Below, piece by piece: positions 3,865-14,534 of a stretch of 64,000 nucleotides of DNA. The position numbers were made by a program, and so were the translations under genes. Source of the stretch: a virus (lineage: Duplodnaviria; Caudoviricetes); IMG/VR virus record IMGVR_UViG_3300023174_000047, positions 128,001 to 192,000 of that record; one strand, given 5' to 3'. The first letter of the stretch is position 1, and every line of letters begins with the position of its first letter. The notes under the pieces were generated by a model. That model was not told the origin of the DNA. It saw only the letters and a list, made by a program, of their open reading frames with translations, and made no database searches.

Positions 3865-4662
3865 TTAATCGAAGATTGATTTGCCGGTTGTAAGGTTGCC
3901 TACCTTGTTGTTTTTACCCATGAGAGCCTTGCCTTTGTCACCTAAAGGCTTTGGCTCGGGCTCAACTTTAGCGCCTTTTGCTGATGTATCTGCTTTGCCG
4001 CCTGATTTGCCTGTGACTGTGCTTCTGACTTTGAAACCGCCTTTGCTCATCATTTTGTGACCTCTGTTGCCAACTGGCTTAGGCTCTGGCTTGACTTCGA
4101 TGCTTTCAGGGAATGTATCCTCATCTTCATCTTCATCTTCAAATTCATCTACATCTGCACCGAGATCCTCAGCACCCATTTCTTCATCAGTCATTTCATC
4201 TTCTGCACCACCTTCAAGTTGGCTCATGAGTGCATCGTGCAGTCTTTGTGCAAGTTCACGTGGAAGTGAAATTGTGATTTCTGATTCATCGCCTGCATCG
4301 TCTGAAATATCAATATCAAGAGCATCAATGTCCTGTGTATCTTGGTCCAAATCAGAGGGATTATCCATTACTTCTTCGTATAGAGTGTCAAAAAGAGATT
4401 TCTTTGTCATATGAGTATTTAGGGTCTGTGGCTCTGCTTTTTCAACTCCTAATGAAAATCTTTGTGGGTCATACAAATTATTTTTCTTTGACTTTTTTGA
4501 ATCAAGAGGTGATACGTATCCCGAAGCATTTGCTGGTCCACCGTGATTTTCTACGTCCATGGTTTCAGCACCCATGGTTGGTTTCTTAATTTTAACTGTA
4601 GGAAGTGGTTTACCGCCATGACCTTTTTTGGTTTTGAATTTGACTCTAGTGTTGCGTTGCAT
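3865..4662 (-). CDS. Acidic, low-complexity late protein (possible head scaffold/core); start probably 4662
   Basis: D/E-rich core, repeated KPEPKP; TAAATA at 4668-4673 on the - strand; longer start 4707 overlaps terminase start. Confidence 0.65.
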   Translation of the reverse strand: MQRNTRVKFKTKKGHGGKPLPTVKIKKPTMGAETMDVENHGGPANASGYVSPLDSKKSKKNNLYDPQRFSLGVEKAEPQTLNTHMTKKSLFDTLYEEVMDNPSDLDQDTQDIDALDIDISDDAGDESEITISLPRELAQRLHDALMSQLEGGAEDEMTDEEMGAEDLGADVDEFEDEDEDEDTFPESIEVKPEPKPVGNRGHKMMSKGGFKVRSTVTGKSGGKADTSAKGAKVEPEPKPLGDKGKALMGKNNKVGNLTTGKSIFD

Positions 4663-4680
4663 GTTTCTATTTAATAAGCG

Positions 4681-4688
4681 TATAAATA
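4681..4688 (+). promoter_or_regulatory. T4-type late promoter for terL-N
   Basis: TATAAATA 9 nt before ATG 4697. Confidence 0.8.
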
Positions 4689-4696
4689 AAAACAGC

Positions 4697-6199
4697 ATGG
4701 CAAACAAAAAAGGCGATTATTATCTCAACAATCCTGCTCTACCCACAAGTAAAGCAGAGTTTGAGTATACATCTGAGATGATTAAAAATATTAAGAAATG
4801 TGAACAAAATTTGCTTTTCTTTGCAGAGAATTATTTTTACATCATAGATCCAGATGAAGGTAGAACCGTAATTAAACTATACAAGTATCAAAAAGATGCA
4901 CTGAGAATGTTGCGAGACAATAGATACAATTTGCTACTTGCAAGTCGTCAAATTGGCAAAGCTCTTGATGTAAATACACCCATCCCCTCACCAGATGGAT
5001 GGAAGACCATGGGCGAACTCAAAGATGGTGATCAAATATATGCAGCAGATGGTAGCATTTGCAATGTAGTAAAAGCACATGATGTGATGCATGATCGCAA
5101 ATGTTACAAAGTTGTTTTTAATAATGGTGAGGAGATTATTGCTGATGCGGATCATTTGTGGTTTACGCAGAGTCGATTGGAGCGACGCGCAAAGCAACAA
5201 GGTACTACAAAAACAACACAACAGTTGTTGAATACTCTTAAGACACATGGTGATGAGCCGAATCATAGAATTCCAGCATGCATTGCTGGTGTTGTAGGCA
5301 AGCACCAGCAATTACCTATGGATCCATATGTATTGGGACTATGGCTTGGAGATGGATGCAGTGATAGCAGATGCATTACAGCTAACAACCTTACAAACAA
5401 TAAACATATTCCTGATGTTTATCTCATGGCTTCAAGAGAGCAAAGATTAGAGCTGCTTAGGGGTCTGATTGATAGTGTTGGATACATGACGAAGTCAGGT
5501 GTTTGTCAGTTTTATAATACAAATCATACACTTGTTGAGCAGACCAAACAACTTGTAGAAAGTTTAGGATATAAAGTAACATCCAAGACCCATGTACCAA
5601 CCTTAAATGGTGTTGAATGCGCTGTTTGTAGCAGCATTACTTTCACTCCCATTGAGCCTCATATAAACAGCTCAAAACATAGAGCACAATGGCACTACAT
5701 CAAAGATATTCAGGAAGTTGAATCAGTTGCTGTTCGATGCATTACTGTTGATAGCAAGGACAATCTCTATTTGTGTGGAAAGCAATACATACCTACACAC
5801 AACACCACCCTGCTAACCATCTATGCATTGTGGATTGCATGTTTCAATCAAGATCAAAACATTATGATTGTTGCTAACAAAGAGAGCACAGCCATTGAAA
5901 TCTTCCGAAGAGTGCGTCTTGCTTATGAACAAATGCCAAACTGGCTCAAGCCTGGTGTTGACGAATATGGCAAGACGAGCATGATGCTCAACAATGGATC
6001 AAGAATTGGTATCAGTACCACAACTGGTTCTGCTGCTCGTGGTACATCTCTAAACTGTGTTAATGGTAATAGCATTATTACGGTTAGAAATAAAACCACG
6101 CAAGAGGTTGAAAATATAACAATTGCTGAGTTGCATCAAAGATTAGAAAAAAATACCTGGAAAACTAATTTAGTGGAAGATTCACCCAGTTTGATATAA
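4697..6199 (+). CDS. terL: Terminase large subunit, N-terminal fragment (cis-intein plus C-terminal split-intein IntN)
   Basis: gp17-like N-terminus (FAENYFYI...LYKYQ...LLASRQIGK), ANKESTAIEIFRR, SAARGTSLN; ends in an intein block A. Confidence 0.93.
   Translation: MANKKGDYYLNNPALPTSKAEFEYTSEMIKNIKKCEQNLLFFAENYFYIIDPDEGRTVIKLYKYQKDALRMLRDNRYNLLLASRQIGKALDVNTPIPSPDGWKTMGELKDGDQIYAADGSICNVVKAHDVMHDRKCYKVVFNNGEEIIADADHLWFTQSRLERRAKQQGTTKTTQQLLNTLKTHGDEPNHRIPACIAGVVGKHQQLPMDPYVLGLWLGDGCSDSRCITANNLTNNKHIPDVYLMASREQRLELLRGLIDSVGYMTKSGVCQFYNTNHTLVEQTKQLVESLGYKVTSKTHVPTLNGVECAVCSSITFTPIEPHINSSKHRAQWHYIKDIQEVESVAVRCITVDSKDNLYLCGKQYIPTHNTTLLTIYALWIACFNQDQNIMIVANKESTAIEIFRRVRLAYEQMPNWLKPGVDEYGKTSMMLNNGSRIGISTTTGSAARGTSLNCVNGNSIITVRNKTTQEVENITIAELHQRLEKNTWKTNLVEDSPSLI
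4961..5803 (+). mobile_element. Class 3 cis-intein (281 aa) in Walker A, degenerate LAGLIDADG domain
   Basis: GK|ALDVNTPIP...ADHLW...VRCITV...IPTHN|T; Ala1 plus Trp-Cys-Thr triad; LGLWLGDG and LLRGLIDSVG blocks. Confidence 0.9.
6056..6196 (+). mobile_element. Split intein N-half (IntN, 47 aa)
   Basis: GTSLN|CVNGNSIITVRNKTTQEVENITIAELHQRL then stop at 6197-6199. Confidence 0.88.
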
Positions 6200-6202
6200 A
6201 TA
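6195..6202 (+). promoter_or_regulatory. Late promoter for the intervening endonuclease
   Basis: TATAAATA overlapping the terL-N stop codon, 6 nt before GTG 6208. Confidence 0.7.
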
Positions 6203-6207
6203 AACTG

Positions 6208-7872
6208 GTGGTTATAGAAATAAAACAAACTGCAGATGCAGCTGCAAAATTAAGCAAAAAGAGTTTCGATGACCACCAGCTTAGTTTTATAGTAAAACAT
6301 ACACTATACAGTGATGACATAACTTTTGCACAAAATGTTTTTAATATCATCAACGGCAATGTTGTTTGGCTCTGCAAGAATTGCAGCAATGCATTAAAAT
6401 TTAGAGGATACAAAGATGGATATGGGTTGTTTTGTTCAACGAAGTGTGCAAATACAAGCAATGTTGATAAGATTAAACAGACACACATCAACAAATATGG
6501 CAAACCGTGGATAGGTTCAAAAATTTGCAGAGAGTATCAAGCTAAGTTAAACTTGCAGAAGTATGGTACGGAGATTTACCAACAAACTAATGAGTTTAAA
6601 CAAAAATTGCAAGACACATGGATCAACAAAGATAAAGAAGCATTGATGGCAAAGATGGTGCAAAAAAATTTAGAAAAGTATGGGACTGATCACTATTTTG
6701 AAACCGATGAATTCAAAAACAAATCACAACTCACATGTCTTAAAAAATATGGTGTCAGTAATGCAATGCAAAGTGCTGAAATTCAGAACAAAGCAAAAGC
6801 CAACAGTGCACTCAAATATATTGATGATATTCAAGAGCAGTGCAATGTAAAGTTGATTGATGAATATAATGGTTGTGCAAAGTATACAAAATATCAGTGG
6901 CAATGTTTAGTATGCAACAACAGCTTTTATGCAGATATATCCATCGGTCACCGCCCCCGGTGTTTCAATTGCAATCCCAGACAAGGAACAAACATTGAAG
7001 AGCGGTTGTTTGAATTTTTAAATGAATGTGGTATTTCATATATTATTCGCAGCAGACAGGTGATATCGCCCTATGAGGTGGATATTTTTATTCCACAAAG
7101 CAATGTTGCCATTGAAGTCAATGGATTAATTTGGCATAGTCTTAGATCTGGTGGCAAAGATAAATTGTATCATGTTAATAAATTTCAAATGTGTCTAGAC
7201 AAGGGCATAAAACTCATACAGCTATATGAGGATGATATACTTGATGAGGATAAATTTAACATCATCAAAAGTAGATTGTCTGTTGTTCTTAATATGCAAG
7301 GCATGCAGCGAATTTATGCTCGTAAATGTGAATTTAAAAAAATCAATGCAACAGATGCAAAAACATTTTGTAATGAAAACCATCTTGATGCTTACTGCAA
7401 TGCCCAATTTAATTATGGGTTATTCCACAACAATAAACTTGTTTCCGTTGCTTGCTTCTCAACAGTTAAATCGAGAATCATATTTCGCCAAAGCAATCAG
7501 CCTGCTGCACATGAATTAATTAGATTCTGCTGCATAAAAAATACTCAGGTCATAGGTGCATTGAGTAAATTTGTTAAAAATCATGCAAACCTACACCAAA
7601 CCAACATTATTTCATATTGCGATTTGAATTGGGGTAGAAGTACATCTTATATTCATGCAGGATTTGAATATATAAAGCAAACTAGCCCCGGCTTCTACTA
7701 CATTAAAAACAACAAAAGACATCATAGATTTACTTTTGCTAAGCACAAGCAAAAGCAATTATTTGAAAACTTTGACCACAATTTGACAGAATTTCAAAAC
7801 TGTTTTAACAATAATATTGATGTATTGTTTAATGTGGGTTGCGATAAATATATGTATAAATGGCTGACCTAA
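6208..7872 (+). CDS. Free-standing putative homing endonuclease (Hef/Vsr-like PD-(D/E)XK domain plus C-terminal GNAT-like domain)
   Basis: N-terminal KYG repeats and CxxC motifs; YEVDIFIP...AIEVNGLIWHS...IKLIQLYEDD; HELIRFC...ISYCDLNWG...AGF. Confidence 0.82.
   Translation: MVIEIKQTADAAAKLSKKSFDDHQLSFIVKHTLYSDDITFAQNVFNIINGNVVWLCKNCSNALKFRGYKDGYGLFCSTKCANTSNVDKIKQTHINKYGKPWIGSKICREYQAKLNLQKYGTEIYQQTNEFKQKLQDTWINKDKEALMAKMVQKNLEKYGTDHYFETDEFKNKSQLTCLKKYGVSNAMQSAEIQNKAKANSALKYIDDIQEQCNVKLIDEYNGCAKYTKYQWQCLVCNNSFYADISIGHRPRCFNCNPRQGTNIEERLFEFLNECGISYIIRSRQVISPYEVDIFIPQSNVAIEVNGLIWHSLRSGGKDKLYHVNKFQMCLDKGIKLIQLYEDDILDEDKFNIIKSRLSVVLNMQGMQRIYARKCEFKKINATDAKTFCNENHLDAYCNAQFNYGLFHNNKLVSVACFSTVKSRIIFRQSNQPAAHELIRFCCIKNTQVIGALSKFVKNHANLHQTNIISYCDLNWGRSTSYIHAGFEYIKQTSPGFYYIKNNKRHHRFTFAKHKQKQLFENFDHNLTEFQNCFNNNIDVLFNVGCDKYMYKWLT
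7843..7850 (+). promoter_or_regulatory. Late promoter-like box for terL-C
   Basis: GATAAATA 10 nt before ATG 7860. Confidence 0.6.
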
Positions 7873-8201
7873 ACAATCATATTTCTGTTTTTAATTCTGA
7901 GTATGAAATTTTAACACATGAAGGTTTTAAGGATTTCAAAGGCGTAATTAGGGGCGATAATCACAACAAAATTGAGTTGGAATTGTCAAATGGACGCAAT
8001 TTGATATGCACACCCAAACATAAAATATATAAGCACGATATGCAAATTGCATTTGCAGAAGATTTGCATGCAGGTGATGAATTGTATAATGGCATTGAAA
8101 TTAAGAAGAAAACCCAATTTACAGACAGCAACAGTGTGTATGAAATAATACACATACAAGATAATCATTCATATTTGGTAAATGATGTTTTGTGTCATCA
8201 A
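7860..8201 (+). mobile_element. Split intein C-half (IntC, 114 aa) ending His-Gln
   Basis: EILTHEGFKDF...ICTPKHKI (block B TxxH)...VYEII...HSYLVNDVLCHQ|C. Confidence 0.88.
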
Positions 8202-9404
8202 TGTCTCATTCTAGATGAGCTTGCATTCATTGATCCACCTTCCATCATGGATGATTTTTGGCGATCAGTGTGGCCAACCATTTCTCGATCCAAACACTCC
8301 AAAGTCCTCATTGCCTCTACACCCAAAGGCACAGATAACCTGTTTTATCAGCTGTATGACGGGGCCATCAAAGGTGAGAATGGCTTTGCAAGCATGACCA
8401 TCAAATGGGATGCAGTTCCTGGTCATGATGAAAAGTGGAAACGTGAACAAATCAAACAAATCGGTAGCGTGGAATCATTTATGCAAGAATATGATTGCCA
8501 GTTTCTTCAAAGTGGTGAATCGTCCATTGACTTGAGCACATTTGATAAACTCAGGCAATATTGTACAACACCTCAGTTTTTTCTTGAAAGCGACAAATAT
8601 ATGATATGGAAATCACCACTACCAGATCGTCTGTATGCAGTTGGTGTTGATGTTGCTGAAGGAGTAGGTCAGAATTATTCTGTTATTCAAATTCTTGATA
8701 TCACCGATTTGACCAGCATTGAGCAAGTTGCTGTTTACAGAGATAATACCATTGCACCAGCACAATTTACAACAAAATTGCATGAAATAATGCAGCAATG
8801 GGGAAACCCCTTGGTTCTCATTGAAAGAAACAACTGCGGTGCTCAGGTTGTTGATAATCTGCGGAATATACATCAGTATGAAAATATTGTAAGCTATGGG
8901 GCTGAACTAGCTGGCCGCAAAAAAGATTTTTTAGGTGTTGTTGCTCACACCAACACCAAACAGCGCGGTGTTCGCAACATGAGATACTGGGTCAATACAC
9001 TCAACTGTGTGCGTTTCAATCATTTACAGACTATTCTTGAGCTCAAAGACTTTGTATGCAAGCCCAACGGAACATGGAGTGCGCGTGGCAGTGGAGTGGA
9101 CGATTGTGTCATGAGCCTCATTTGGGCACTGGTGTTGCTTGATAATGACCCACAGTATGGCATATGCGGCAATTATTTTGAAGTTGTTGATTTGGATGAA
9201 AATGGCAAACCTAGATCCATCAAGCCTTTGGATTACGGCTTAAAGTACTTCACATCAAACAATAAAAAATATGATTTGTTTGGCAATGCATTGGAAGCCA
9301 CTAAATACTCAGATGCAGCAAGCTTGCCCATTGTGTTTGGCAGTTCTACCAATCAAAGCAGCGAAGTAAGTGACCTTGAATTAGAGGGCTGGACAATATT
9401 ATGA
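7860..9404 (+). CDS. terL: Terminase large subunit, C-terminal fragment (IntC, Walker B and nuclease domain)
   Basis: CLILDELAF (Walker B), IASTPKG, FMQEYDCQF, GVDVAEGVGQNYS, LIERNNCG, DDCVMSL. Confidence 0.93.
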   Translation: MADLNNHISVFNSEYEILTHEGFKDFKGVIRGDNHNKIELELSNGRNLICTPKHKIYKHDMQIAFAEDLHAGDELYNGIEIKKKTQFTDSNSVYEIIHIQDNHSYLVNDVLCHQCLILDELAFIDPPSIMDDFWRSVWPTISRSKHSKVLIASTPKGTDNLFYQLYDGAIKGENGFASMTIKWDAVPGHDEKWKREQIKQIGSVESFMQEYDCQFLQSGESSIDLSTFDKLRQYCTTPQFFLESDKYMIWKSPLPDRLYAVGVDVAEGVGQNYSVIQILDITDLTSIEQVAVYRDNTIAPAQFTTKLHEIMQQWGNPLVLIERNNCGAQVVDNLRNIHQYENIVSYGAELAGRKKDFLGVVAHTNTKQRGVRNMRYWVNTLNCVRFNHLQTILELKDFVCKPNGTWSARGSGVDDCVMSLIWALVLLDNDPQYGICGNYFEVVDLDENGKPRSIKPLDYGLKYFTSNNKKYDLFGNALEATKYSDAASLPIVFGSSTNQSSEVSDLELEGWTIL

Positions 9405-9979
9405 CTGACATCGTACAATCACCATTTAATAAAGCACGTGTTGATAAGTTTACTATGGTAATAAACTTACCACCTGCATTAAAAAGCATCAACAGCAAAT
9501 TCACACGCAGCAATAAAAATGTAAACATTGATGCTCTGCAATTTTCTGTGTTTGGCACAGTAATTCCTGACATTGTTGTGCCTGCAGTTGAGACAAGATT
9601 TGGAGGCAGCACTATTTATGTATCATCTCACAGCAGACCATCATTCCCGCCTGTAACCATCAACTTCACCATTGATAATGAATTTAATAATTATTGGTGC
9701 ATATATCAGTGGCTTAATTTAATGCGAGATGAGAGAGAAGGTGTATTTGGAGTTGTGAATAGCAGAGGACTTGCAGGTGCAGAAGCCGTTTTAGATGAGT
9801 ACACCACAACTTTTACGTTGTATGCTAAAAATGAATTCAACAACAACATCATTAAATTTGAATTTCTCAAAGCTTTTCCTACAAAATTGGGCAGCATTTC
9901 TTTAAACTATCAAGATAGCAAAGAAATCCCTTGCTCATTCGATTTTGTATTTTCCAACATTACTTCTACTCTGCTTTAA
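9401..9979 (+). CDS. Tail completion / sheath stabiliser, T4 gp3-like
   Basis: Tube-fold pattern (LQFSVFGTVIP...VTINFTIDNEFNNY...AFPTKLGSISL); upstream of sheath. Confidence 0.75.
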   Translation: MTDIVQSPFNKARVDKFTMVINLPPALKSINSKFTRSNKNVNIDALQFSVFGTVIPDIVVPAVETRFGGSTIYVSSHSRPSFPPVTINFTIDNEFNNYWCIYQWLNLMRDEREGVFGVVNSRGLAGAEAVLDEYTTTFTLYAKNEFNNNIIKFEFLKAFPTKLGSISLNYQDSKEIPCSFDFVFSNITSTLL

Positions 9980-10009: not shown

Positions 10010-12682
10010 ATGGCATCAAGAATTATCAATTCCCCCGGGGTACAAATTAATGAAATCGATGAAACAGCTATCCAAGCCAATATTACTGGCACAGATATTC
10101 TGATTACTGGTTTTGCAAGCAAAGGTCCGACAGATGAAATTATCAGCGTCTCTTCTATTACAGAATTTGAGCTAATTTTCGGTGCACCAACTAATGCTGC
10201 AGAGCGTTATTTTTACTATTCTGTAAAGCCCTTGTTTGGTACTGGAGCTAATTTGCTACTCAGCCGTCTTCCTTATGGTGGAGGCAATGGTGATGGTTTT
10301 GGCTCTCAATACAGCGCAATTGTTTATCCAGTTGTTGCAGTATCTGGTAATCCTGTCAACATTAATCTTGCTGATATTACAGCAACAGCTACAGCAGGTA
10401 CTCCACTCACTGTTGCTGGTGGCGTGTCAGCTGTATCAGTGGTATCATCAGGTCGATATTATGCAACTGCACCTGCGGTTACAGTATCAGCACCACAGAC
10501 ACCTGGTACAACAGCAGCATTTACAGCAAATATAACAACTGTTGGTACAGTATCATCACTTTCTATTACACAAGCTGGATCTGGATATACAGCTGCACCA
10601 ACAATAACAATTGCTGCACCAAGCTACAGCAACATCGGTGGTATTGTGTCTACACTTAATTCAACAAGTGTTGATTCATATGTTCTCGGCAAGCCAATTC
10701 ACTTTACGCTAACTAAATCACAATACTTGTCATGCATCAATGGTGAAGCATTCACATGGCAGTCTAATTCACTTGCATCTTCTTCTTTTGGTAGAACAGC
10801 GACTGGTTCAACATCTGGTACAGCAGCTAACATCAGCACATTTGCTGACTTTGGCAAGGCAGGCTTGATCATCTTCAACAAAGCACAAACAACCATCAAT
10901 GACAAGTATGAAGGTTATTACATTGGCGTAATTGACAATTCCAATGCAAATCCTGCAACTCAGTTTGATGGCATTGTAACAGCAACTACTTTTAATACTA
11001 CTGTTACAAATACAGGTAGTGCAGATATAGGCACACCAATTCCTGATGCTCGTCTCAACTTTACACTATCAGGCAGCAATTTAACAAATGGATCACTTTC
11101 TCAGATTATTGAGAATGCTGCATCATTCAACATTGGTACAAAACAATACAACGACTACCTCACAATAGGTGTATTCAAGCTTCGTCAGAGCATCTTCTCA
11201 ACTAATACAGTCAAGCTCGATTACTTGCTTGAAGAGAGGTTTGTTGCAAGCATGGATTATTACCGTCAGCGCACACCAGAGAACGGAGGACCAATTGCAT
11301 CAGCTTACATCGGCAATGAAGTGGAAGATGCATCCCGCAACATTACGGTTATGGTTAATGATAACATATCAAATCGCACTTCATCCACATGGCTTGATGC
11401 AAATGGTATACCAACCAAGAGTGTGAGAATGTTATCACATGAACTTGAAACACAAGTCACAGACAGCACTGTTTTTAATCAAGTATCAGGTACAGTTGGA
11501 ATCACTGCTGCTGCATTCAATGCTGCAAAAACAGCACTTTCAGGCAAGTATGCTGATGATTTAATTGGTCTTGGTGCATATGTAGATCCAACACCAACAA
11601 CCAAGACAATTGGCAGCTTGCCTGGTAAGCTTGATCGTATTTTTCAATTGCTTGAAAATGATGAACTGTATGACATTGATATTTCCATTGAGGCAGGTCT
11701 TGGCACAATTTATGCAACAACATGCGCAGCTCGTACGCCATATTATGATGATACATTGATGAATCCTACGCTGCAGCAAGCAATTGGCTACTTACAGACA
11801 ACCTTCAACTACTCAGCACCAGCAGATGATACTTTGGATTTGAGAGGCAACTACAATACTATATTTGCTAGATTTGCTGACTTTGCACGTGATAGAATGG
11901 ATCACATTTTCATTGCTGACCCAATTCGCCACATTCTTGTAACAGGCATCAACTCAAAGACATTGTATGATTCAAACAAGAGCTGGTCTCAGTATGTGTT
12001 TTCACCGCTGCGTCATCAGTTTGAGCTTGCAAACACAAGCTATGCAGCAGCATATGCTAACTGGGCACGTGTCCAAGATACGTTTGCACAAATAAATGTG
12101 TGGGTGCCATTTTCGGGATATGTTGCAGCAGATTATGCACGCTCGGATAGAGATTTTGCGTATTGGTCTGCACCAGCAGGATTCCGCCGCGGATTAGTAA
12201 GTGAAGTTGATGACATTGCAATCACACCTAATCAGAAACAGCGCGATGATTTGTACAAGTTCAATCTCAATCCAATTACACAGTTTGTGAGAGAAGGCAT
12301 TGTGATATACGGTCAAAAAACTATGCTCCGCACACCAAGTGCATTTGATCGAGTTAATGTGCGCCGCTTGTTTATTATACTTGAGAAGCAAACAAAAGCA
12401 ATTGCACGTTTTTATGTATTTGAACCAAATTCATTATACACACGCACTCGCTTGGTAGATGACTTGACGCCAAACTTTGAAGCTGCCAAGACTGCAACAA
12501 TCAATCAAGGTATTTATGATTACATAATTGTATGCGACGATAGGAATAATACACCTGCAGTCATTGATGCAAATGAATTGGTTGTCGACATTTACATCAA
12601 GCCAGTTCGTACCGCAGAGTTTATCTTGGTAAACTTCCATGCATCAAGAACTGGAGCAAACTTCCAGGAAATCTTACGATAA
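10010..12682 (+). CDS. Tail sheath protein, gp18-like, with inserted Thr/Ala-rich domains
   Basis: SPGVQINEID, GFASKGP, WSAPAGFRRG, GQKT...SAFDRVNVRRLF, IYIKPVRTAEFI; CATAAATA at 9997-10004. Confidence 0.95.
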   Translation: MASRIINSPGVQINEIDETAIQANITGTDILITGFASKGPTDEIISVSSITEFELIFGAPTNAAERYFYYSVKPLFGTGANLLLSRLPYGGGNGDGFGSQYSAIVYPVVAVSGNPVNINLADITATATAGTPLTVAGGVSAVSVVSSGRYYATAPAVTVSAPQTPGTTAAFTANITTVGTVSSLSITQAGSGYTAAPTITIAAPSYSNIGGIVSTLNSTSVDSYVLGKPIHFTLTKSQYLSCINGEAFTWQSNSLASSSFGRTATGSTSGTAANISTFADFGKAGLIIFNKAQTTINDKYEGYYIGVIDNSNANPATQFDGIVTATTFNTTVTNTGSADIGTPIPDARLNFTLSGSNLTNGSLSQIIENAASFNIGTKQYNDYLTIGVFKLRQSIFSTNTVKLDYLLEERFVASMDYYRQRTPENGGPIASAYIGNEVEDASRNITVMVNDNISNRTSSTWLDANGIPTKSVRMLSHELETQVTDSTVFNQVSGTVGITAAAFNAAKTALSGKYADDLIGLGAYVDPTPTTKTIGSLPGKLDRIFQLLENDELYDIDISIEAGLGTIYATTCAARTPYYDDTLMNPTLQQAIGYLQTTFNYSAPADDTLDLRGNYNTIFARFADFARDRMDHIFIADPIRHILVTGINSKTLYDSNKSWSQYVFSPLRHQFELANTSYAAAYANWARVQDTFAQINVWVPFSGYVAADYARSDRDFAYWSAPAGFRRGLVSEVDDIAITPNQKQRDDLYKFNLNPITQFVREGIVIYGQKTMLRTPSAFDRVNVRRLFIILEKQTKAIARFYVFEPNSLYTRTRLVDDLTPNFEAAKTATINQGIYDYIIVCDDRNNTPAVIDANELVVDIYIKPVRTAEFILVNFHASRTGANFQEILR

Positions 12683-12776: not shown

Positions 12777-14534
12777 ATGTCTTTGATAGAAGAAATACAG
12801 AGCAATTTATACACAAAAACAAACAAAATTAATACTGCCATAATAAGGCAAGATTGGTTTAAAAAATCTAATTTGTATGCAGATATAATGAAAGAGACAT
12901 CCTTTCTTGACAATGACGTATGCTTTGCAGCGCGAATATTTTGCATAGTCAATAATATCAAGAGCATGCCAGCGTGCCCTGTAACCGGTAAAAGTGTTAA
13001 GTGGTTACCTACAAAACATAGATTTGCCATTGCTGCTGGCAGATCAAATGCATCTAAAATTAAAAAAATTGATAATGCAAAACTATCTCAAAGCCTCAAA
13101 GCATCAAAAGCATTAATCAAAAGTAACTTCTACAGCCTATACAAAACAAATAAATTTAATATTGTCAGTAGAGAAAAATGCACAGACTTTATAAAGAGCA
13201 GATTGGAACACACCGATCACGGAAGAAAGCATAATTTTGTAGATACATCTATACTTAAAAAATATCATGATGAGTGTTGCAGCATTATTCTACATACACA
13301 GCATCCATTATTAGATGATAATGATATAAACTGGAGTGAAAGGTTTTTTCTTTTGTATAATAATGATGTCCCGAAACTATGTAATTATGATCCCACACAA
13401 AAGGCAAAATTTTGCAATTTCTTAGCTGGGTACAATAACAATAGTTCTGCACAGGCAAGGAATAAAAACACATTAAAAATAATCAAGCAATCCATTGAGT
13501 ATCAAAACTTCTCTATTTTAAATGATATAAACTCACATCAACAAGAGTATCAATTGAGATGCAATGTCTGTAATAGTATTTTACAGCGAAGATTGACAAA
13601 TGCGCGCTGGAAAGATATATTTTGTGCCAAATGCAACAATGTTACCGTGGGATCGTCTCGTGCAGAAGCAGAGATATCTGCTTTTCTGCAAAATGACTGC
13701 AACATGCAGGTTGAGAGATTATATGACTTGCCACCTAGTGGAATAGAAATCGATATATTTCTACCACAGAAAAACGTTGGTATCGAGCATCACGGCTTAT
13801 TGTGGCATAGTTTTGGTTCTTGCTTCCCCGACAATGCAGATGTTGAAAGTGTAAACAAATTTAAGCATAGAAATAAGCGGGATATATGCATGAGCAACAA
13901 TGTACAGTTGTTGCAGATTTTTGAAAATGAATGGATTGATAAAAGAAACATTGTTGAGTCAATGATGCGTAGCAAGTTAGGAATATTGCAAAATAAAATC
14001 TATGCTCGCAATTGCACAATACAATGCATCACAGCAAAACAGAAAAGTATTTTTCTTAATAATAATCACATACAAGGCAATGACAATTCACAAATTGCAA
14101 TTGCTCTAATTCATGAAGGTGACATTGTTGCAGCAATGACTTTTGGTAACCGCAAAATAACTGCAAATAAAACTTTTGAACTCATAAGATTTTGCTGCAA
14201 AACAAACACAAGCGTTATTGGAGGTGCCTCTAAATTATTAAAATACTTTACAAAAAAACATAATGTATCATGCATTACAACATATGCTGATTTGAGATTT
14301 TGCTTTGATGGTTCGTTTTACAAAAACTTAGGCTTTAAGCACATCAGAACAACACCACCTGCATACTGGTACACAGATACAAAGACTGTGATGCACCGCT
14401 CCAACTTTCAAAAACATAAATTAGTAAAACAGGGTGATGATTTGAGTCTTACAGAATGGGAAATTATGAAAGAGCGTGGGTGGCGTAGAATATGGGATTG
14501 TGGTCACATGGTTTTTGAATATAAATATTCATAA
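12777..14534 (+). CDS. Second Hef/Vsr-like putative homing endonuclease with GNAT-like C-terminus
   Basis: EIDIFLP...GIEHHGLLWHS...LLQIFENEW; IYARNC...FELIRFC...ITTYADLRF...GF; same architecture as 6208..7872. Confidence 0.82.
   Translation: MSLIEEIQSNLYTKTNKINTAIIRQDWFKKSNLYADIMKETSFLDNDVCFAARIFCIVNNIKSMPACPVTGKSVKWLPTKHRFAIAAGRSNASKIKKIDNAKLSQSLKASKALIKSNFYSLYKTNKFNIVSREKCTDFIKSRLEHTDHGRKHNFVDTSILKKYHDECCSIILHTQHPLLDDNDINWSERFFLLYNNDVPKLCNYDPTQKAKFCNFLAGYNNNSSAQARNKNTLKIIKQSIEYQNFSILNDINSHQQEYQLRCNVCNSILQRRLTNARWKDIFCAKCNNVTVGSSRAEAEISAFLQNDCNMQVERLYDLPPSGIEIDIFLPQKNVGIEHHGLLWHSFGSCFPDNADVESVNKFKHRNKRDICMSNNVQLLQIFENEWIDKRNIVESMMRSKLGILQNKIYARNCTIQCITAKQKSIFLNNNHIQGNDNSQIAIALIHEGDIVAAMTFGNRKITANKTFELIRFCCKTNTSVIGGASKLLKYFTKKHNVSCITTYADLRFCFDGSFYKNLGFKHIRTTPPAYWYTDTKTVMHRSNFQKHKLVKQGDDLSLTEWEIMKERGWRRIWDCGHMVFEYKYS

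Follow-up and report, generated by a model that had tools for sequence, protein, structure and literature searches.

How a phage can build its DNA-packaging motor when terL, the gene for the large terminase subunit, lies in two pieces with another gene between them is the question raised by positions 4697–9404 of the DNA analyzed here. This DNA is a stretch of 64,000 nucleotides (nt), hereafter the window, taken from positions 128,001 to 192,000 of the IMG/VR virus record IMGVR_UViG_3300023174_000047 (Duplodnaviria; Caudoviricetes), which has 203,774 bp and is about 96% complete. The window contains T4-type structural genes (the tail sheath gene at 10010–12682) and is found in public runs from lake and freshwater metagenomes of several studies; the phage is a freshwater T4-like one of roughly 204 kb. 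Megablast of the whole region against GenBank phages gives no match. A single terL match is found in the genome. Comparison with related loci shows that this terL is fractured by an atypically split intein, with a free-standing Vsr-like endonuclease gene between the intein halves, and makes it very probable that the two precursors are joined by protein trans-splicing. Such a layout had been proposed by a sequence-only reading of the window, and the coordinates and sequences that it gave for the three genes (terL-N, the endonuclease gene, and IntC-terL-C, IntN and IntC being the N- and C-terminal intein halves) are all present to the base.

Anatomy of the terL locus

The exteins and inteins were cut from both terL products and compared by tblastn with relatives fetched from IMG/VR; the resulting features are listed in Table 1. 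The three genes occupy three reading frames. The open reading frame (ORF) of terL-N (4697–6199, 500 amino acids (aa)) ends with ...GTSLN followed by the first Cys of the IntN (Cys1, TGT at 6056–6058), with the TAA stop at 6197–6199. The endonuclease ORF begins with GTG in another frame, and the IntC-terL-C ORF (7860–9404, 514 aa), in the third frame, overlaps it by 13 nt. At the end of the IntC, CAA (Gln, 8199–8201) is followed by TGT (Cys+1, 8202–8204), the protein reading ...CHQ and then CLILDELAF. Extein 3 matches the Pfam families Terminase_6C (1.9e-07) and Terminase_6N (2e-04), and is 66% identical to the corresponding part of L004.

Table 1. Features of the fractured terL locus, in window coordinates
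Feature	Position	Strand	Basis or remarks
TATAAATA motif, T4-type late-promoter consensus	4681–4688	+	8 nt before the terL-N start codon
TerL extein 1, 88 aa	4697–4960	+	Ends with the first half of Walker A, ...ASRQIGK; uninterrupted in L004, RQIGKTTML
Intein 1, contiguous, 281 aa, putative class 3 type, decayed LAGLIDADG domain	4961–5803	+	Pfam; comparison with L004
TerL extein 2, 84 aa, TTLLTIYALW... to ...GSAARGTSLN	5804–6055	+	89% identical to L004, where it abuts the flanking exteins
IntN of the split intein, 47 aa, CVNGNSIITVRNK..., plus TAA	6056–6199	+	Alignment of 27 IntN sequences
TATAAATA motif, exact	6195–6202	+	Overlaps the IntN stop codon, 5 nt before the endonuclease GTG
Free-standing homing endonuclease gene, 554 aa	6208–7872	+	Pfam, PHROG, family profile
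TATAAATA motif, 7 of 8 positions	7843–7850		Before the IntC
IntC of the split intein, 114 aa, MADLNNH...VLCHQ	7860–8201	+	Alignment of 21 IntC sequences; CatC profile match
TerL extein 3, 400 aa plus stop	8202–9404	+	Cys+1, Walker B CLILDELAF, rest of the ATPase domain, RNaseH-like nuclease domain

The closest uninterrupted relative, L004, has one terL in which the three extein pieces (66–89% identical) abut. Its Walker A, ASRQIGKTTMLTIYALW, has no insertion; at the split-intein site it reads ...RGTSLNVLILDELAF, and its Walker B region is GSAARGTSLN-V-LILDELAFIDPPSIMDDF. Extein length is kept relative to L004, and the split intein is inserted exactly between the Asn and the Val/Cys position. 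The residue at +1 is Val in the intein-free allele, and Cys in the window and always in intein-bearing alleles. The splicing junction proposed earlier, which would restore the Walker B region, thus holds, the insertion being precise relative to the intein-free relative; and because L004 is colinear across both junctions, the layout is not due to chance. For terL-N, the coordinates, the IntN and the stop stand as first read, but the description as a plain half gene does not, as residues 89–369 form a second, contiguous intein in Walker A.

The same three genes are kept in the independent assemblies L100 and L101, and a contig from run X11 aligns colinearly along 5101 nt, with 146 differences and 0 gaps; an artefact of assembly is thereby ruled out. 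Contigs of four runs contain no endonuclease-less or intein-less joint, although contigs are blind to rare variants. Extein 3 differs from that of L100 by 21 nt and one amino acid change, and the terL exteins are clearly under purifying selection. These observations bear on the possibility that terL is inactive or in decay here, that the metagenomic genome is defective or wrongly assembled, and that another gene performs packaging. The record is indeed a metagenome assembly and is somewhat short of complete, and intein 1 shows obvious decay in its LAGLIDADG domain; however, the same arrangement is assembled independently in several studies, the genome yields no further terL match, selection on the exteins is strong, and the splicing residues are intact in both inteins, so that we consider decay highly improbable.

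The split intein and its relatives

A region-restricted protein search with the IntC yields about 21 metagenomic IntC-TerL-C proteins of 505–529 aa, and a pattern scan of IMG/VR with the IntC alignment yields at least 71 loci, which were analyzed by script. In total, about 40 distinct IntN/IntC pairs were gathered, with an endonuclease gene present or absent in the gap, and with a Gln or Asn end. The IntC of the metagenomic relatives are only 43–54% identical to that of the window. Here, Cys1 is invariant in 27 aligned IntN sequences (mostly 39–51 aa long), and T51, H54, H103, Q114, and C115 are invariant in 21 aligned IntC sequences, E95 being nearly so. Among the loci at this site (before the Walker B strand, hereafter site b), the terminal residue is Gln in most and Asn in a few lineages, and Cys+1 is kept; with few exceptions, the IntC opens with Met-Ala-Asp. 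Variation across the family is seen in the penultimate residue (H/R/E/M/K/N/S/Q/L), which is usually His. Termination by Gln is an accepted intein variant, and splicing with it is documented in other inteins (PMC4031507).

The IntN contains block A alone, and the IntC contains blocks B (CTPKH), F (VYE...DNH), and G; the split point lies between blocks A and B. This is the atypical, S2-type split, as in AceL and GOS TerL, the canonical one being between blocks B and F (PMC13014065), and the assignment as an atypically split intein in the sequence-only reading is therefore upheld. That reading had also proposed alignment with known TerL split inteins as a check, and the IntC family profile does match the Cat-TerL IntC (CatC, 6DSL_B; E 1.1e-11), as well as gp41-1 (5.6e-08), VidaL, and NrdJ-1. 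The window IntC as a single sequence matches CatC at E about 0.005. The IntN profile shows a weak match to CatN (6DSL_A; E 0.65), and a search of the PDB with the single-sequence IntN plus flank gives no match, a profile being needed.

Docking of the halves was modeled by co-folding the IntC plus 21 extein residues with the IntN plus 8 extein residues. The score is 0.85 (median of three runs), versus 0.01 for the best of 3 controls; the mark set for this score is reached by 58 of 80 solved complexes and by 2 of 110 mismatched pairs. At least 86% of contacts are common to the runs, and the partner pLDDT (predicted local distance difference test) is at least 69. In the modeled interface, residues right after Cys1 lie against block B and the C-terminal His-Gln-Cys; on the IntN, contacts are made by residues 1–14 and the helix, and the last 13 or so amino acids have no confident contact. 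Because a homologous complex (6DSL) has already been solved, reaching the mark shows likeness; the model supports, and does not demonstrate, IntC–IntN binding.

The TerL fragments might also never be joined covalently, with the intein halves serving as a non-covalent dimerisation module and the motor working as a two-chain enzyme. There is precedent in the endonuclease-split NrdA of phage Aeh1, whose fragments assemble by protein interaction (PMC3045599); to judge from the terminal Gln and the variability of the residue before it, the last step may be slow or weakened (PMC4031507); and the co-fold supports association alone, not chemistry. A docking module, however, needs none of Cys1, the block B Thr and His, His103, the terminal Gln/Asn, and Cys+1, all of which are kept at 43–54% identity, nor would it account for the change from Val to an invariable Cys at +1. 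Moreover, the Walker B strand belongs to the core sheet of the ATPase, which would probably be disturbed by a 161-aa HINT domain remaining permanently ahead of that strand, and splicing is known for the homologous TerL inteins AceL, GOS, and Cat (PMC11766414). We therefore regard the two-chain motor as improbable, and covalent joining by trans-splicing as the preferred reading.

What occupies the gap

The content of the gap between IntN and IntC varies among alleles. In 39 loci, the gap gene encodes a GIY-YIG/SegE-like protein of 247–303 aa; in the window and L038, an EDxHD/Vsr-like protein of 554–569 aa, with a shortened copy in L034 and L066; and in L035 and L047, several genes are present, one of them TnsA-like. 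Of the loci examined, those of 8 distinct lineages have a gap of 2–155 nt without a gene (L019/L023, L020/L021, L028, L039, L041-type, L049, L059/L061, and L067). Since the split persists where the gap holds no gene, the halves are maintained without help from an endonuclease. The intein at the same site is contiguous in four lineages (P0014/L022, P0147, L078, and L088-L091); contiguous P0014 keeps an internal Met-Ala-Asp (...EPQEAAMADLYNH...), as if two halves had been re-fused.

These gaps also weigh on the possibility that RNA processing or translation, rather than protein splicing, connects the halves, through a group I or group II intron with an endonuclease gene, trans-splicing of RNA, or ribosomal bypassing. 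In Campylobacter phage IBB_35, a comparable layout was reported under the term "intein and intron" and annotated as an intron (PMC3322345), and group I introns are among the places where EDxHD endonucleases are found (PMC3239194). However, no intron fold would survive where the gap is down to 2 nt or holds unrelated genes, as it does in relatives; on both sides of the gap, the DNA codes for intein blocks that are conserved, as are the stop and the Met-Ala-Asp start; and the three ORFs lie in three frames. No Rfam intron family is found at 4300–9800 at E <= 1, the only match there being a chance-level one to transfer-messenger RNA. Joining in any of these ways is thus very unlikely compared with protein trans-splicing.

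A separate observation is protein P0153 (549 aa, from ENA), in which extein 2 runs into the middle of the IntC (...IGISTIT, then CTPKHK...SNQ, then CLILDE); it is either a deletion remnant of a split intein or an assembly chimera.

The gap endonuclease

The gap endonuclease combines a Zn-ribbon and DUF7487 repeats, an EDxHD/Vsr-like nuclease domain, and a C-terminal Mom/GNAT-like domain. Pfam matches are to DUF7487 (4.1e-21), Mom (7e-10), and, below the threshold, Vsr (0.0017; 18.6 bits versus 27); the whole length is covered by a match to PHROG 3339, "homing endonuclease" (1.5e-97), and the metagenomic homologues number more than 1000. A search of the PDB with the single sequence gives no match, and a profile is needed: that of 30 homologues matches the catalytic domain of I-Bth0305I (3R3P) at E 4.5e-08 and, in the C-terminal domain, a GNAT acetyltransferase (2BSW) at 0.006. 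Invariant or nearly so among the homologues, and present in the window protein P0002, are E290, D292, E303, and H310; such conserved Glu/Asp...His residues fit the EDxHD active site (PMC3239194). The free-standing Vsr-like endonuclease suggested earlier between the halves is thus confirmed in kind, its family being homologous to I-Bth0305I. A repeat search finds no flanking repeats around the gene.

A paralogue (585 aa, 27% identity, E 1e-37) is located at 12777–14534, after the tail sheath gene, and has the same EDxHD domain plus the Mom/GNAT-like C-terminal domain. It is missing from L100 (92–96% identical), where 27 nt stand in place of about 1.8 kb; the terL-embedded copy is present in both. 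This provides indirect evidence that the endonuclease family may be mobile. The tail sheath gene itself has about 300 nt extra at 10361–10664 compared with that of the close relative L100 (890 aa versus 805 aa).

The TATAAATA motif has 14 matches in the window versus 6.0 expected, several of them 4–10 nt before gene starts, and its copies are interpreted as putative late promoters; a T4 late promoter usually sits much farther from its gene. The endonuclease gene, with its GTG 5 nt past one such copy, has no visible Shine-Dalgarno sequence. A scan for sigma-70 promoters yields matches at the level of shuffled sequence, and terminator-like hairpins show no meaningful placement.

The intein in Walker A

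Intein 1 (residues 89–369 of the terL-N product, P0001) is placed between RQIGK and TT of Walker A (RQIGK, A...THN, TT). Class 3 inteins are defined by the lack of a nucleophile at position 1, Trp B:12, Cys F:4, Thr G:5, and a nucleophile at +1 (PMC4031507). Intein 1 has Ala1, His-x-Trp in block B (ADHLW), VRCITV in block F, and PTHN followed by Thr, which, with block positions assigned by eye from the motif pattern, places it among the predicted class 3 inteins. The Trp/Cys/Thr signature is kept in 14 distinct allelic inteins from related contigs, L016 alone having Cys1. The allelic copies in the 14 related contigs are 279–354 aa long, with one mini form of 147 aa (L022).

Pfam matches are to Hom_end (E 9.9e-07) and Intein_splicing (0.0014). 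The LAGLIDADG domain has lost about 57 residues after its first motif, and the catalytic Asp of the second (LIDSVG versus LIDSDG in relatives). The homing function has probably decayed, with the splicing residues kept.

Similar to known class 3 inteins (DnaB of mycobacteriophage Bethlehem, Snf2 of Deinococcus radiodurans; PMC2807308, PMC4031507), intein 1 combines Ala1, His-x-Trp, Cys F:4, Thr G:5, and Thr at +1, and sits in the P-loop of a phage ATPase; unlike them, it has TerL as its host protein, and its nested LAGLIDADG domain is decayed. Elsewhere in the genome, outside the window (G000:C1:88707-90078), two further Intein_splicing matches lie about 1 kb apart with stops between them, in keeping with at least one more split intein in this phage.

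Terminal Gln versus Asn

Gln is the last residue of 32 distinct site-b sequences, all from split inteins. Five split lineages (L036, L037/L068, L058, L087) and all four contiguous ones end in Asn. The association of Gln with the split state has a Fisher p of about 0.001 as a raw count that ignores kinship. The Asn-ending rows are scattered on the IntC tree (e.g., L036 with Asn is sister to L033 with Gln), thus the terminal residue seems to have switched several times.

In the Pab PolII intein, replacement of Gln by Asn makes C-terminal cleavage 20-fold faster (PMC4031507). The terminal Gln could be an adaptation to the atypical split, its slow cyclisation blocking premature C-terminal cleavage before the IntN docks; if so, with nearly the whole active site held by the IntC, maturation of TerL would depend on the assembly of both halves. 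We consider this explanation rather doubtful, as Asn is the last residue in other TerL inteins with an atypical split (Cat, CP21, L093).

Proposed maturation of TerL

Under the preferred reading, precursor 1 (500 aa) would comprise TerL residues 1–88, the class 3 intein, TerL residues 89–172, and the 47-aa IntN; precursor 2 (514 aa), the 114-aa IntC and the 400-aa C-terminal part of TerL. Intein 1 would splice in cis, closing Walker A (SRQIGK-TT). The IntN (beta1-beta2-helix, block A) would dock into the almost complete HINT domain of the IntC; Cys1 would form a thioester, and the N-extein would be transferred to Cys+1; cyclisation of the terminal Gln would then release the intein. The predicted product is a 572-aa TerL reading ...RGTSLN-C-LILDELAF, with the junction peptide ...GTSLNCLILDELAF. 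The gap endonuclease would be selfish cargo, dispensable for splicing; allelic split inteins have a GIY-YIG gene or nothing in its place. Splicing, as well as the activity and the target of the endonuclease, is predicted here from sequence comparison.

The persistence of the halves and of the catalytic residues in endonuclease-less lineages, together with the clear purifying selection on the exteins, argues that trans-splicing of TerL is functional and needed. Some points weigh on the other side. The co-fold result may stem from the similarity of the pair to split inteins of solved structure. Splicing efficiency is uncertain, as C-terminal cleavage is generally slower with a terminal Gln (PMC4031507) and the penultimate residue varies. 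Expression of the endonuclease is uncertain as well, given its GTG start and the lack of a visible Shine-Dalgarno sequence.

With two inteins in terL, the motor would need two splicing events, i.e., assembly of an essential phage machine would depend on two mechanistic classes of splicing, one at Walker A and one at Walker B. The allelic series provides comparative material on the origin and re-fusion of split inteins, on gain and loss of endonucleases at one site, and on the effect of Gln on the coupling of steps. The window intein, proposed in the sequence-only reading as a probable new orthogonal pair with biotech value, is one more candidate pair for protein engineering, although its 47-aa IntN is longer than the 15–37 aa favoured in the labelling literature.

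Comparison with known systems

The prototype of EDxHD (Vsr-like) homing endonucleases is I-Bth0305I (PMC3239194; PDB 3R3P). The window endonuclease shares with it a homologous nuclease domain, and has N-terminal repeats where I-Bth0305I has DNA-binding NUMOD motifs. Unlike I-Bth0305I, it is 554 rather than 266 aa long, lies free-standing between intein halves and is not intron-encoded, has DUF7487 repeats and Zn-ribbons at its N-terminus, and carries an additional, strongly conserved Mom/GNAT-like C-terminal domain.

Natural atypically split terminase inteins are AceL-TerL and GOS-TerL, along with the consensus Cat-TerL (reviewed in PMC11766414, PMC13014065). Similar to these, the window intein has the same T4-type TerL host, a short IntN split after the first helix ("S2"), and a long IntC with blocks B, F, and G; similar to AceL, it has Cys1/Cys+1 chemistry. 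It differs in the length of the IntN (47 aa versus 25, 37, and 30 aa) and in ending with Gln rather than Asn, and is only distantly identical to them (IntC versus CatC, single-sequence E 0.005). Studies of these atypically split inteins were reportedly made by Thiel (2014), Bachmann and Mootz (2015), and Stevens (2018).

Three or more intein sites are observed around the ATPase core of TerL in related contigs. Site b is used by the window family and by the split intein of Campylobacter phage CP21; a site directly after the Asp-Glu of Walker B, by Vibrio phage VmeM-32 and the second intein of CP21; and site c (QE[YF]x, C...HN, C[EK]F), by L092/L093 (3299-5400, split), P0152, L035, and L047. P0152 (L062-L064) has a split site-b intein together with a contiguous site-c intein. 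The site-c inteins, that of P0152 included, are closer to CatC than the window intein is. As single sequences, the site-c IntC of L093 matches CatC at 2.6e-10, versus 0.005 for the window IntC, and the Cat construct continues with Cys-Glu after the junction, whereas the window continues with CLILDE. For these reasons AceL, GOS, and Cat are regarded as probable site-c alleles, and the window intein probably belongs to a related but separate allelic family with another insertion site; the C-extein of AceL we take to be CEFL.

Campylobacter phages (CP21, IBB_35, the NCTC12673 group), which are cultured T4-like phages, also have a terL with a short IntN, a stop, an endonuclease gene, and a long IntC; the insertion, ahead of Walker B, is at the position used in the window or at one next to it (RGFSC, C...HN, CNIIVVDE). 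In contrast to the window, their endonuclease is T5orf172/GIY-YIG-like, the intein ends with His-Asn, and the IntC is only 28–33% identical. The terL of CP21 (L002, HE815464.1, 1118-5404) has three inteins: one in Walker A (PRQ, C...SHN, SSKST); the split one before Walker B, with a 35-aa IntN, a T5orf172-type endonuclease gene, and an IntC ending with HN before C; and, immediately behind VVDE, a contiguous one. The reading frame of the CP21 IntC lacks a visible ATG where it begins.

The closest precedent in layout is given by the "fractured genes" of Dassa et al. (2009; PMC2677866), including a terminase locus from Lake Gatun with a 122-aa IntC. The statement of the sequence-only reading that fractured phage genes and atypically split TerL inteins are known from metagenomes agrees with that paper and with the reviews on AceL- and GOS-TerL (PMC11766414, PMC13014065). 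Those loci, from phage-like freshwater and marine DNA, have the same order of extein-IntN, free-standing homing endonuclease (GIY-YIG or Vsr-like), and IntC-extein on one strand in overlapping frames, and their terminase locus shows the same unusual early split, the IntC holding every motif but N1 (PMC2677866). The Lake Gatun locus is an incomplete metagenomic fragment, compared here by its description only, whereas the window locus is complete and lies in a 204-kb genome; the window also adds a class 3 type intein in Walker A, and its allelic family includes endonuclease-less members. The layout is thus a further example of a design described in 2009, tested biochemically from 2014, and common in phages; modestly new are the allelic family before Walker B with its prevailing terminal Gln, its endonuclease-less alleles, and its pairing with a class 3 type intein in Walker A.

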